Below, piece after piece: positions 2,477 to 60,064 of a stretch of 64,000 nucleotides of DNA; within the stretch, counting starts at the first letter, position 1, and every line of letters begins with the position of its first letter. Position numbers and translations under genes: made by a program. Source of the DNA: Escherichia coli (GTDB lineage Bacteria; Pseudomonadota; Gammaproteobacteria; Enterobacterales; Enterobacteriaceae); the NCBI RefSeq assembly GCF_003790525.1, contig NZ_CP033635.1; one strand, given 5' to 3'. Under the pieces are notes generated by a model. That model was not told where the DNA came from. It worked only from the letters and a program-made list of their open reading frames with translations, and searched no databases.

Positions 2477-2587
2477 TAAAAAGAATTCAGAATCAGGCCG
2501 GAGTGCTAAACACTCCGTAAACACGGTCGTACATCCAGCCGGTAGCCTGGTTCCTTGCATTGAGTGATGTACGGAGTTTATAGAGCA

Positions 2588-4232: not shown

Positions 4233-4556
4233 ATGTCGATTACACTGAGCGACAGTGCAGCAGCGCGAGTAAATACCTTTCTGGCTAACCGTGGCAAAGG
4301 GTTTGGCCTGCGTCTGGGCGTGAGAACCTCCGGATGTTCAGGTATGGCTTATGTACTGGAATTTGTTGACGAACCGACGCCGGAAGACATCGTGTTTGAA
4401 GACAAAGGCGTGAAAGTCGTGGTCGATGGCAAAAGCCTGCAATTTCTGGACGGTACGCAGCTGGACTTCGTAAAAGAAGGCCTGAACGAAGGGTTTAAAT
4501 TCACCAACCCGAACGTTAAAGATGAGTGTGGTTGCGGCGAAAGCTTCCACGTTTGA
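4233..4556 (+). CDS. iscA: Fe-S carrier IscA
   Basis: 107 aa from [13 protein letters not shown]; C-terminal CGCGESF motif. Confidence 0.93.
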
Positions 4557-4651
4557 TGCGCATACCGATAACCCCACCGTGGTCGCCTGCGCGTGGGGTT
4601 TGTTTTACCTGATTCGCCGTTATCGCGGCGGATCGCAGCCCTGAGAATGTT

Positions 4652-5167
4652 ATGGATTACTTCACCCTCTTTGGCTTGCCTGCCCGTTATCAACTCGATA
4701 CCCAGGCACTGAGCCTGCGTTTTCAGGATCTACAACGTCAGTATCATCCTGATAAATTCGCCAGCGGAAGCCAGGCGGAACAACTCGCCGCCGTACAGCA
4801 ATCTGCAACCATTAACCAGGCCTGGCAAACGCTGCGTCATCCGTTAATGCGCGCGGAATATTTACTTTCTTTGCACGGTTTTGATCTCGCCTGCGAGCAG
4901 CATACTGTGCGCGACACCGCGTTCCTGATGGAACAGCTGGAACTGCGCGAAGAACTGGACGAGATCGAACAGGCGAAAGATGAAGCGCGGCTGGAAAGCT
5001 TTATCAAACGTGTGAAAAAGATGTTTGATACCCGCCATCAGTTGATGGTTGAACAGTTAGACAACGAGACGTGGGACGCGGCGGCGGATACCGTGCGTAA
5101 GCTGCGTTTTCTCGATAAACTGCGAAGCAGTGCCGAACAACTCGAAGAAAAACTGCTCGATTTTTAA
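4652..5167 (+). CDS. hscB: Co-chaperone HscB
   Basis: 171-aa J-domain protein [16 protein letters not shown] with HPD motif. Confidence 0.93.
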
Positions 5168-9066: not shown

Positions 9067-9843
9067 ATGTCCGAAACAAAAAATGAACTTGAAGACCTGC
9101 TGGAAAAAGCAGCAACCGAACCGGCGCACCGCCCGGCCTTTTTCCGTACTCTACTGGAATCCACCGTCTGGGTGCCGGGTACGGCGGCGCAGGGCGAGGC
9201 TGTGGTTGAAGATAGCGCGCTTGATTTACAGCACTGGGAAAAAGAAGACGGCACCAGCGTCATTCCTTTTTTTACCTCGTTAGAAGCACTTCAACAGGCG
9301 GTTGAAGACGAACAGGCATTTGTCGTAATGCCCGTTCGCACATTGTTTGAGATGACCCTTGGCGAAACGCTCTTCCTTAATGCCAAACTGCCAACCGGTA
9401 AAGAATTTATGCCGCGTGAAATCAGTTTGTTGATTGGTGAAGAAGGAAATCCGCTGAGCAGCCAGGAAGTACTGGAGGGCGGTGAATCGCTGATATTATC
9501 GGAAGTCGCAGAGCCACCAGCACAAATGATTGATTCTCTCACCACCTTATTTAAAACTATTAAGCCGGTGAAGCGTGCTTTTATTTGTTCAATTAAAGAG
9601 AACGAAGAGGCACAGCCTAATTTACTTATTGGCATTGAAGCCGATGGTGATATCGAAGAAATTATTCAGGCGGCGGGAAGTGTAGCGACCGATACAATAC
9701 CTGGCGATGAACCCATCGATATTTGTCAGGTGAAAAAAGGGGAAAAAGGAATTAGCCACTTTATTACCGAACATATTGTGCCATTCTATGAACGTCGCTG
9801 GGGTGGTTTTTTGCGTGACTTTAAACAGAACCGGATAATCTAA
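9067..9843 (+). CDS. sseB: SseB, enhancer of serine sensitivity
   Basis: 258 aa from MSETKNELEDLLEKAATEP; convergent with sseA. Confidence 0.85.
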   Translation: MSETKNELEDLLEKAATEPAHRPAFFRTLLESTVWVPGTAAQGEAVVEDSALDLQHWEKEDGTSVIPFFTSLEALQQAVEDEQAFVVMPVRTLFEMTLGETLFLNAKLPTGKEFMPREISLLIGEEGNPLSSQEVLEGGESLILSEVAEPPAQMIDSLTTLFKTIKPVKRAFICSIKENEEAQPNLLIGIEADGDIEEIIQAAGSVATDTIPGDEPIDICQVKKGEKGISHFITEHIVPFYERRWGGFLRDFKQNRII

Positions 9844-9945
9844 AATATGCCGCCCCAAAGGGCGGCATTCGGGCTTACCTGCTGTTCTGAAGGTTGTTAA
9901 CCACCAATAAATTGTTACCGGAGAGACTCCGGTTATTATTTACCT

Positions 9946-10325
9946 CGGTTAACAGCGCACCAGAAACAATAAGTACGATACAAAAGCACCGTATCTTCAT
10001 TGTGCGGTCCATGCGAAGACCGCATCACGACAGCACCACTGGCGATATTGCCGCGATAGCAAGCGCTGTGAAACACCTGCATTTACGGCCATGGAACATC
10101 CTTTCCTTAAGCCAGCGCCCGTTTGCGAGACGGCGGAAAGGGCCGGTGTCGATAATACGCTAAATAAACAATGATTACTCTCTTTCGCTTGACAAAAAGA
10201 GAGTTACTGGCGAGTATTGCTTTGCTGTGAAGCACCTGCGTTGCTCATGCAACACAAGCCAATCTGCTGGAAAGGCCGCGAACCAGACCAGCAATAAAAA
10301 ACCGCCAAATTCGGCGGTTTTTTAT
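9946..10325 (+). ncRNA. Candidate RyfA-like sRNA in the sseB-sseA intergenic region (strand and ends uncertain)
   Basis: About 500 bp non-coding gap between convergent genes; promoter-like TTGTTA-16-TATTAT at 9911-9938; strong hairpin plus T-run at 10300-10330; RyfA is known to lie between sseA and sseB in E. coli. Confidence 0.25.
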
Positions 10326-10330
10326 TGCCT
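10300..10330. terminator. Bidirectional intrinsic terminator downstream of sseA
   Basis: aaaaaaccgccaaattcggcggttttttatt: GC stem flanked by A-run and T-run. Confidence 0.55.
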
Positions 10331-10339
10331 GTTAAAAGC

Positions 10340-11185
10340 TTATTTCTCTGGCTCAACCGGTAAATCTGCTCGTGCGCCCCATTCACTCCATGCGCCGTCG
10401 TACAGTTTCACGTTTGGCACATCAAGTGTCGCGAGTGCCAACAAAACCACGGCTGCCGTTACACCAGAGCCGCAGCTGACGATAATCGGTTTGTCATAGC
10501 TGACGCCGCGACCAAAAAATATCGCATCCAGTTCATCGGTCGTTTTTAGTTCGCCTTCGCGCACCAGTTCCGTCCACGGAACGTTCAATGCACCGGGAAT
10601 ATGTCCGCGACGTAAACCTGGGCGAGGTTCATCAACTTCTGCGTTAAAACGTGCAGCCGGGCGGGCATCAATAATTTGCGCCGTATTTTCATGGCTTGCC
10701 AATAACACATCGGTGACTTTCACCACGGCTTCAGGATTAAACGTGGCGTTAAACTCTCCTTCCGGCAGCTCTACTGCACCTTCTTCTAACAGCAGATCAT
10801 CGCGCTGCCAGCCTGCAAGTCCACCCCCCAGAATCGACACTTTCTCTACACCAAAGGTGCGCAGCATCCACCATGCTCGTGGGGCTGAGAAAAGATTACC
10901 TTCGTCATAGATAATCAGGTGCTTATCCTGGTTAACGCCTAATTCACGCATCGCCACGGCGAACGTTTCCGGGCGCGGCAGCATGTGCGGAAGCGGGGAA
11001 GTGTGATCAGAAAGCGCTTCGATATCAAAAAACACTGCGCCGGGAATATGTCCATTCAGATACTCCTGAGCAACGTTACGATCTTCCTGTCCAGGCGACG
11101 CCATGCGGGCATCGATAATCTGAATTTCCGGGTCATCAATATGTTCGGCGAGCCAGTCGGCTCCTACAAACCATGTCGTGGACAT
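10340..11185 (-). CDS. sseA: 3-mercaptopyruvate sulfurtransferase SseA
   Basis: 281 aa from MSTTWFVGADWLAEH (start 11185), rhodanese domains; ORF-track start 11344 is an extension. Confidence 0.9.
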   Translation of the reverse strand: MSTTWFVGADWLAEHIDDPEIQIIDARMASPGQEDRNVAQEYLNGHIPGAVFFDIEALSDHTSPLPHMLPRPETFAVAMRELGVNQDKHLIIYDEGNLFSAPRAWWMLRTFGVEKVSILGGGLAGWQRDDLLLEEGAVELPEGEFNATFNPEAVVKVTDVLLASHENTAQIIDARPAARFNAEVDEPRPGLRRGHIPGALNVPWTELVREGELKTTDELDAIFFGRGVSYDKPIIVSCGSGVTAAVVLLALATLDVPNVKLYDGAWSEWGARADLPVEPEK

Positions 11186-21868: not shown

Positions 21869-22987
21869 ATGCATAACCAGGCTCCAATTCAACGTAGAAA
21901 ATCAACACGTATTTACGTTGGGAATGTGCCGATTGGCGATGGTGCTCCCATCGCCGTACAGTCCATGACCAATACGCGTACGACAGACGTCGAAGCAACG
22001 GTCAATCAAATCAAGGCGCTGGAACGTGTTGGCGCTGATATCGTCCGTGTCTCCGTACCGACGATGGACGCGGCAGAAGCGTTCAAACTCATCAAACAGC
22101 AGGTTAACGTGCCGCTGGTGGCTGACATCCACTTCGACTATCGCATTGCGCTGAAAGTAGCGGAATACGGCGTCGATTGTCTGCGTATTAACCCTGGCAA
22201 TATCGGTAATGAAGAGCGTATTCGCATGGTGGTTGACTGTGCGCGCGATAAAAACATTCCGATCCGTATTGGCGTTAACGCCGGATCGCTGGAAAAAGAT
22301 CTGCAAGAAAAGTATGGCGAACCGACGCCGCAGGCGTTGCTGGAATCTGCCATGCGTCATGTTGATCATCTCGATCGCCTGAACTTCGAACAGTTCAAAG
22401 TCAGCGTGAAAGCGTCAGACGTCTTCCTCGCTGTTGAGTCTTATCGTTTGCTGGCAAAACAGATCGATCAGCCGCTGCATCTGGGGATCACCGAAGCGGG
22501 TGGTGCGCGCAGCGGGGCGGTTAAATCCGCCATTGGTTTAGGTCTGCTGCTGTCTGAAGGCATCGGCGACACGCTGCGCGTATCGCTGGCGGCCGATCCG
22601 GTCGAAGAGATCAAAGTCGGTTTCGATATTTTGAAATCGCTGCGTATCCGTTCGCGCGGGATCAACTTCATCGCCTGCCCGACCTGTTCGCGTCAGGAAT
22701 TTGATGTTATCGGTACGGTTAACGCGCTGGAGCAACGCCTGGAAGATATCATCACTCCGATGGACGTTTCGATTATCGGCTGCGTGGTGAATGGCCCAGG
22801 TGAGGCGCTGGTTTCTACACTCGGCGTCACCGGCGGCAACAAGAAAAGCGGCCTCTATGAAGATGGCGTGCGCAAAGACCGTCTGGACAACAACGATATG
22901 ATCGATCAGCTGGAAGCGCGCATTCGTGCGAAAGCCAGTCAGCTGGACGAAGCGCGTCGAATTGACGTTCAGCAGGTTGAAAAATAA
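21869..22987 (+). CDS. ispG: HMBPP synthase IspG
   Basis: 372-aa [39 protein letters not shown]. Confidence 0.95.
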
Positions 22988-23097
22988 TAACGTGATGGGA
23001 AGCGCCTCGCTTCCCGTGTATGATTGAACCCGCATGGCTCCCGAAACATTGAGGGAAGCGTTGAGGGTTCATTTTTATATTCAGAAAGAGAATAAAC

Positions 23098-59987: not shown

Positions 59988-60064
59988 TGGCGCGGCATGC
60001 AGGATTCGAACCTGCGACCAACCGCTTAGAAGGCGGTTGCTCTGTCCAACTGAGCTAATGCCAC
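59988..60064 (-). tRNA. tRNA-Arg (anticodon UCU), phage-encoded
   Basis: 77-nt cloverleaf folded by hand: acceptor GTGGCAT/ATGCCGC, anticodon loop CTTCTAA, T-loop GCAGG-TTCGAAT-CCTGC, encoded CCA. Confidence 0.85.

Follow-up and report, generated by a model that had tools for sequence, protein, structure and literature searches.

The 496 bp lying between sseB and sseA in an Escherichia coli chromosome very probably hold a full timPR module, a toxin-antitoxin system of type I that comprises the timP mRNA (RyfA) and a divergently transcribed antisense RNA, TimR. The stretch of DNA analyzed, which we term the window, is 64,000 nucleotides from contig NZ_CP033635.1 of assembly GCF_003790525.1, and all coordinates refer to it. 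The timPR locus is already known; RefSeq and the K-12 annotation both include it, and a mechanism has been published for Salmonella. The value of the present analysis is corrective. The gap is coding, it holds two genes rather than one, and signals described in an earlier note on this DNA are reassigned to other elements.

The gap between sseB and sseA contains two genes

The two flanking genes are convergent, and the gap between them runs from 9844 to 10339, as the earlier note had described in giving it about 500 bp.

ends at 9843, plus strand: sseB
ends at 10340, minus strand: sseA, with its stop codon at 10340-10342

The gene order pepB-sseB-timP-sseA-yfhM is common to the window, to E. 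coli strain 2016C-3878 (NZ_CP029747, the one genome with a gap 100% identical to that of the window) and to K-12, and in all three ryfA is sited between sseA and sseB as expected of Escherichia synteny. Of 5426 complete E. coli genomes, 5425 have a match to the gap, which is chromosomal in every case and never on a plasmid, and only 411 of the 5425 have an identity of at least 95% to the sequence of the window.

Scanning the whole window with the Rfam models gave a match to RF00126 (ryfA) of 319.4 bits (E = 4.6e-88, against a gathering score of 80 bits). It covers model positions 1-296 of 296 and runs from 10146 to 9842 on the minus strand, the only strand that the covariance model matches. 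Elsewhere in the window there are Rfam matches to the iscRS stability element (2477-2586, plus strand, 136.5 bits), the sroE sRNA (22987-23078, plus strand, 116.6 bits) and a tRNA (59991-60064, minus strand, 69.4 bits).

The gap holds two genes, timP and timR. The earlier note had called it non-coding, and this cannot stand because a 41-codon coding sequence lies within it. The features of timP are as follows.

9842-10146, minus strand: timP mRNA, about 305 nt, historically named the RyfA sRNA; from RF00126 and projection of K-12 b4440
10152-10157, minus strand: putative -10 hexamer of the timP promoter, TATTAT, 5 nt upstream of 10146
9875-10000, minus strand: TimP coding sequence, 41 codons, product MKIRCFCIVLIVSGALLTEVNNNRSLSGNNLLVVNNLQNSR
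9917-9933, minus strand: stem-loop inside the TimP ORF, mRNA nt 214-230, codons 23-28, seven pairs
9847-9868, minus strand: stem of the timP intrinsic terminator, AUGCCGCCC-UUUG-GGGCGGCAU, then AUAUUUU as far as 9842

The 5' end at 10146 is obtained by projecting K-12 ryfA (b4440) through the alignment. It is possibly at 10144 if the start follows the Salmonella numbering, and transcript ends projected from annotation in this manner have an uncertainty of about 2 nt. The earlier note had located RyfA between sseA and sseB, leaving its strand and ends to an alignment with annotated ryfA; the location is confirmed by the Rfam match and the projection, and the alignment gives the minus strand from about 10146 to 9842. 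The mRNA has a folding z-score of -6.72 compared with shuffled sequences, and begins with a structured 5'UTR of 146 nt that places the TimP AUG at +147. The TAnnnT of the -10 hexamer is kept at the same position in 13 species, and no good -35 element was found in the region upstream of 10146. The putative promoters of timP and timR both fall in the 77-bp divergent region, 10147-10223.

At its other end, timP terminates in a hairpin of nine pairs, seven of them G-C, that was found by a scan for minus-strand terminators and is also the terminal stem of the Rfam family. The stem is conserved with compensatory changes in an alignment of 11 species. Read on the plus strand, the same hairpin lies directly after the sseB stop codon and has no U-tract. 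The earlier note had placed a second hairpin after sseB at 9847-9872; the hairpin exists, but its role is mainly that of the timP terminator, because the U-tract is on the minus strand.

TimP is a small protein with a signal-like N-terminus

TimP begins with a basic segment (MKIR), followed by a hydrophobic core of 13 residues with a mean hydropathy of 2.9. In NZ_CP029747 RefSeq annotates the gene as WP_004974226.1, 'small toxic inner membrane protein TimP', and this maps to 10000-9875 of the window. Residues 1-39 match profile positions 1-39 of 40 in NCBIfam NF040796 (toxic_TimP) with 84.2 bits, where the curated cutoff is 45. The earlier note had raised the prospect of a small toxic protein as in Salmonella, to be sought as a short ORF with a Shine-Dalgarno sequence; the profile match bears this out, and the ORF running from 10000 to 9875 on the minus strand has a GGA 7 nt upstream of its AUG. 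The ORF is found at the same position in all 17 sequences compared (15 loci, the window and K-12), with a length of 38-42 aa. The N-terminal half of these homologues is conserved, including the hydrophobic N-terminus, and the C-terminal half is variable.

Within the ORF, the stem formed by codons 23-28 is 87% paired over the cells of the 11-species alignment, compared with 25-56% when the partners are slid. There are compensatory changes at four of the seven pairs, a count of double changes that was reached in 0 of 500 shuffles, and the stem is also present in the RF00126 consensus structure. The compensatory changes alter residues of the protein, for example CGG..GGU (R..G) against UGG..AAU (W..N). 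Retention of this stem across genera suggests selection acting at the RNA level within the ORF. It is not discussed in the main text of the cited timPR literature, where no function is described for it.

The 5'UTR of timP adopts a conserved four-stem fold

The elements defined in the Salmonella 5'UTR all map onto timP of the window with a constant offset of +2.

10100-10141, minus strand: stem-loop SL1, nt 6-47, mapped from PMC11228461 and PMC13000454
10111-10117, minus strand: pseudoknot site 1, CGCUGGC, nt 30-36, in SL1
10085-10090, minus strand: site 2, GGCCGU, nt 57-62, matching Salmonella C57/C58/G59 with the +2 offset
10059-10080, minus strand: stem-loop SL2, nt 67-88, carrying the TimR target
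10065-10083, minus strand: TimR target in timP, nt 64-82, a direct repeat of 10224-10242
10024-10057, minus strand: stem-loop SL3, nt 90-123
10037-10043, minus strand: pseudoknot site 3, GCCAGUG, nt 104-110, in SL3
10004-10023, minus strand: stem-loop SL4, nt 124-143, from minimum-free-energy and consensus folds, with its role taken from PMC11228461

In an alignment of 14 sequences the published four-stem fold has 94.9% of its cells paired, and sliding the partners lowers this to 38-51%. The lower stem of SL1 is 96.9% paired and its upper stem 100%. The pseudoknot of seven pairs between sites 1 and 3 is 100% paired in the 14 sequences, with compensatory changes at three of the seven. In the predicted fold the 3' strand of SL4 sequesters the Shine-Dalgarno GGA (10008-10010, nt 137-139).

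Two further pairings can be formed in the window. That between sites 2 and 4 is 100% paired in the 14 sequences, which does not exceed the shuffle control. Because the search pattern itself imposed SL4 and site 4, both are invariant in the alignment and the pairing carries no covariation signal. The alternative pairing between sites 1 and 2 is 95.7% paired across species, a value that the shuffle control finds indistinguishable from column composition.

Two short ORFs lie in the 5'UTR on the minus strand, one of 24 codons starting at +48 (10025-10099) and one of 31 codons starting at +55 (9997-10092), the stop of the latter overlapping the TimP start (AUGA). Neither matches a protein family. 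We considered translational coupling through these ORFs and rejected it, since in E. whittamii, Citrobacter, Yersinia, Erwinia and Rahnella they have another length or do not occur at all. For the uORF of Salmonella timP, a start-codon mutant was without effect (PMC11228461). We treat the ORFs as by-products of the conserved RNA structure.

The TimR seed can pair with SL2 in the timP mRNA

The second gene lies on the opposite strand, between timP and the end of sseA.

10224-10323, plus strand: timR sRNA, 100 nt, from K-12 timR b4811 projected through the alignment
10224-10242, plus strand: TimR seed, the single-stranded 5' end, first 19 nt, GCUGUGAAGCACCUGCGUU
10264-10289, plus strand: internal module of TimR, CUGGAAAGGCCGC..ACCAGC, near-invariant, with a small hairpin 5' of it and the terminator after
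10189-10217, plus strand: putative timR promoter, -35 TTGACA at 10189-10194, 17-nt spacer, -10 GAGTAT at 10212-10217
10291-10328, both strands: bidirectional intrinsic terminator, serving timR (plus strand) and sseA (minus strand)

The direct repeat between 10065-10083 and 10224-10242 is identical at 17 of 19 positions, and both differences give G.U pairs. Nucleotides 1-19 of TimR are consequently complementary to nt 64-82 of timP over 19 contiguous pairs, 17 of them Watson-Crick and two G.U. The calculated energy of this duplex is -48 kcal/mol, compared with -26 +/- 3 kcal/mol for shuffled seeds, and none of 500 shuffles was as good.

TimR has a folding z-score of -3.89 compared with shuffles. 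Its consensus structure, taken from 12 sequences, comprises a small hairpin with G-C/A-U compensation, the near-invariant module and the terminator. The K-12 start projects to 10224, 7 nt downstream of the putative -10 element. Across 13 species the TTGAC of the -35 element is invariant, and A2 and T6 of the -10 element are kept. A 10-bp inverted repeat, ACTCTCTTT..AAAGAGAGT (10177-10204), brackets the -35 element and was flagged as terminator-like in the scan. A role for it as an operator was rejected; it is present in E. coli of types A and B (see below), and not in type C or in other genera.

The terminator is formed by two arms of 19 nt, 10291-10309 and 10310-10328, that are 95% complementary and flanked by an A-run and a T-run. 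It coincides with the terminal hairpin of the TimR fold and lies 12 nt past the sseA stop. The earlier note had recognized a bidirectional terminator at 10300-10330. The inverted repeat is indeed there, but timR, the gene that it closes, was absent from that account. There is no Rfam family for TimR; all the sub-threshold matches within 10140-10345 fall on the terminator with scores far below gathering, and a weak match to ohsC (26 bits, where 50 are required) likewise involves the terminator only.

The seed varies freely, but the internal module, CUGGAAAGGCCGC..ACC.GACCAG, hardly changes between Escherichia and Yersinia, Rahnella or Erwinia. The module resembles site 2 together with the 3' strand of SL1, and we considered a second contact with timP made through it. 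This was rejected as unsupported, as 21-81 of 200 shuffled modules gave a duplex as good as the best one between the module and its cognate timP. Our guess would be that the module is a binding site for a protein such as ProQ or Hfq.

Seed and target vary together between species

A scan of the genome collection with a pattern derived from SL4 was too permissive, returning 120 loci that were mostly unrelated G+C-rich hairpins. The usable loci were 15 from the enterobacterial genera Escherichia, Citrobacter, Superficieibacter, Yersinia, Rahnella and Erwinia, and their ryfA matches score 180-313 bits. C. amalonaticus, Y. aleksiciae and Y. similis were left out of the covariation tests; each has a ryfA shortened at its 5' end, with no TimR at the usual place. 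In Y. similis no TimR module is found upstream of the shortened ryfA (4554-4837 of the extracted locus), where a TimR on the opposite strand would be expected. A match to Rfam Ysr224 (134 bits, 4361-4467) lies just upstream of this ryfA on the same strand.

TimR homologues were identified in 13 sequences, 59-81 nt upstream of timP and transcribed from the opposite strand. The sequences of the TimR seed and the SL2 target differ between these 13 enterobacterial species and yet stay complementary, so that the two co-vary. Cognate duplexes have a mean energy of -40.5 kcal/mol, compared with -25.8 kcal/mol for non-cognate combinations, and the cognate duplex ranks first in 10 of the 13.

E. coli carries several matched types of seed and target

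Variation of the same kind is found within the species. In a sample of nine E. coli versions, timPR has at least three matched types of seed and target.

type A: the window, K-12, LHM10-1
type B: N58, HB37, E. whittamii
type C: O157:H7, KOr021, SCPM, E. sp. E1V33

Duplexes formed between non-cognate TimR and timP of these types are weaker by about 6-12 kcal/mol. The window has the compact form of type A, in which a single cognate timR lies 77 bp from timP.

In K-12 MG1655 ryfA (b4440), timP (b4812) and timR (b4811) are all annotated and are flanked by the same genes as in the window. The timP 5'UTR is almost identical, the SL2 target and the annotated timR seed are the same, and TimP differs at 3 of 41 residues. 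The gap between sseA and sseB is, however, about 320 bp longer in K-12. Proximal to its type A timP there is a timR-like copy with a non-cognate type B seed. Between this copy and the cognate timR lie a 16-nt remnant of a timP 5' end and a second copy of the promoter region, and the cognate b4811 is about 400 bp from timP as against 77 bp in the window. The additional copy and the remnant (in 1830-2672 of the extracted K-12 locus) are a feature of K-12-like genomes in the sample, and are also present in AR_0151. The arrangement looks like what is left after a tandem duplication involving two timPR types.

The matched types and the additional type B copy in K-12 may reflect diversifying selection for orthogonal pairs, or an sRNA freed to act on other targets, and the stem at codons 23-28 may have a function at the RNA level. 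Based on sequence comparison, we put these ideas forward tentatively, as possible but somewhat doubtful. Neither the types nor the stem is mentioned in the main text of the cited timPR literature.

A damaged version was observed in E. coli P276M (about 1200-1880 of the extracted locus), where a deletion truncates or fuses TimP after residue 7 and no timP is annotated. The same strain has a pseudogene in place of sseB, and in its proximal timR-like copy the seed is different again and the terminator degraded.

A proposed mechanism based on that of Salmonella

TimP of Salmonella is an inner-membrane protein that is toxic when overproduced, and base-pairing of TimR with the 5'UTR represses its translation (PMC7667032). 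In the mRNA, SL4 hides the Shine-Dalgarno sequence, translation depends on the SL1-SL3 pseudoknot, and binding of TimR to SL2 disrupts the pseudoknot (PMC11228461). Pairing of sites 2 and 4 opens SL4, and pairing of sites 1 and 2 locks the RNA in an inactive form (PMC13000454).

If the strain of the window behaves in the same manner, a timP mRNA would be transcribed from the minus strand and would encode a small toxic protein with its signal-sequence-like hydrophobic N-terminus, and the Shine-Dalgarno sequence would be locked in SL4. Translation would need a structural switch in which the SL1-SL3 pseudoknot forms between sites 1 and 3 and site 2 pairs with the 5' flank of SL4. The alternative pairing between sites 1 and 2 would hold the mRNA inactive. 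TimR, made divergently from the plus strand 77 bp away, would pair through its 5' 19 nt with SL2, destabilizing the pseudoknot and blocking translation. Toxicity, the switch and repression by TimR are each inferred here from the Salmonella experiments. Northern blots have revealed TimR in UPEC CFT073 and APEC CH138 (PMC13188913). According to the same source the production and toxicity of TimP in E. coli 'remains to be determined', and deletion of timR had little effect in APEC.

Alternative explanations

It could be argued that the 305-nt RyfA of E. coli is mainly a trans-acting sRNA affecting stress resistance, fimbriae, biofilm and virulence, with TimP not meaningfully expressed and TimR serving as a partner or sponge. 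In UPEC and APEC the phenotypes of ryfA deletion are strong, those of timR deletion are slight and the double mutant is wild-type-like, and a small protein went undetected in both Shigella and APEC (PMC13188913; see also PMC8205139 and PMC10664665). Yet from Escherichia to Yersinia, Rahnella and Erwinia the TimP ORF has kept its start, its length of 38-42 aa and its hydrophobic N-terminus, the protein matches the curated toxin family NF040796, and the elements required for regulated translation in Salmonella are all present, with the four-stem fold and the pseudoknot co-varying. A conserved ORF accompanied by elements that control its translation argues against a purely non-coding role for RyfA, and we consider a mainly regulatory RyfA improbable. 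The functions of toxin mRNA and riboregulator are compatible, and a dual-function RNA is possible. The compact and intact type A allele of the window would offer a clean E. coli template on which to ask whether timP is a toxin mRNA, a riboregulator or both.

Two other readings are still less likely than an RyfA acting mainly as an sRNA. The earlier note had pointed to a promoter-like element with an embedded hairpin at 9911-9938, and a plus-strand transcript might be driven from there across the gap to the terminator at 10300-10330. A sigma-70-like sequence, TTGTTA-16-TATTAT, is present at 9912-9939 (9 of 12 positions matching) with a hairpin at 9917-9933, and the plus-strand terminator 10291-10328 could end such an RNA. 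However, matches of this quality occur at chance frequency (two in 800 bp, compared with 1.3 +/- 1.0 in shuffles), the site is inside the conserved TimP ORF, and the hairpin co-varies as a stem of the minus-strand mRNA. Moreover the ryfA model matches the minus strand only, and the terminator is accounted for by timR with a conserved putative promoter of its own, leaving this transcript very unlikely indeed. It is equally hard to credit that timPR is a decaying remnant in this strain, possibly still transcribed but having lost its toxin-antitoxin function. Damaged versions do occur in some E. coli genomes, such as P276M, but the window has a full-length match to the model, an uninterrupted ORF, the Shine-Dalgarno sequence, the pseudoknot, a TimR seed that forms all 19 of its pairs with the cognate target, and both putative promoters and both terminators intact.

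Comparison with known systems

The closest comparison is with timPR of Salmonella Typhimurium SL1344, formerly ryfA/STnc2070. Like the locus in the window it adjoins sseB, its toxin mRNA and its antisense sRNA are divergent, and the N-terminus of its small toxin is signal-like. The stem-loops SL1-SL4 and the pseudoknot of sites 1 and 3 are common to the two, and the segments that could pair as sites 2 and 4 or as sites 1 and 2 also map onto the window. The 5' end of TimR pairs with SL2 over 18 nt in Salmonella and 19 nt in the window, and although the sequences of seed and target differ the complementarity is retained. TimP has 41 aa in the window but 38 aa in Salmonella (ORF +145 to +261), with a different C-terminal half. 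The 5'UTR contains a uORF of eight codons in Salmonella, as against the 24 (+48) and 31 (+55) codons of those in the window. Salmonella has in addition a gene, STM2534, between sseA and timP that is absent from the arrangement in the window.

In Shigella dysenteriae, RyfB1 is the homologue of TimR and lowers the level of RyfA1 (PMC7667032). From the description in that source the arrangement of the gene pair is the same as in the window; RyfA1 and RyfB1 are described as a pair of sRNAs affecting virulence, with no protein shown.

The hok/sok, tisB/istR-1, shoB/ohsC and zor/orz systems resemble timPR in having a small hydrophobic toxin and an antisense RNA antitoxin, and in hiding the ribosome binding site of the toxin within RNA structure, which prevents co-transcriptional translation. 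Their mRNAs are activated by nucleolytic processing, a uORF or a standby site, whereas for timP refolding alone is reported to make the switch (PMC11228461). Unlike the antitoxins of these four systems, TimR is trans-encoded, from a divergent gene that does not overlap that of the toxin.
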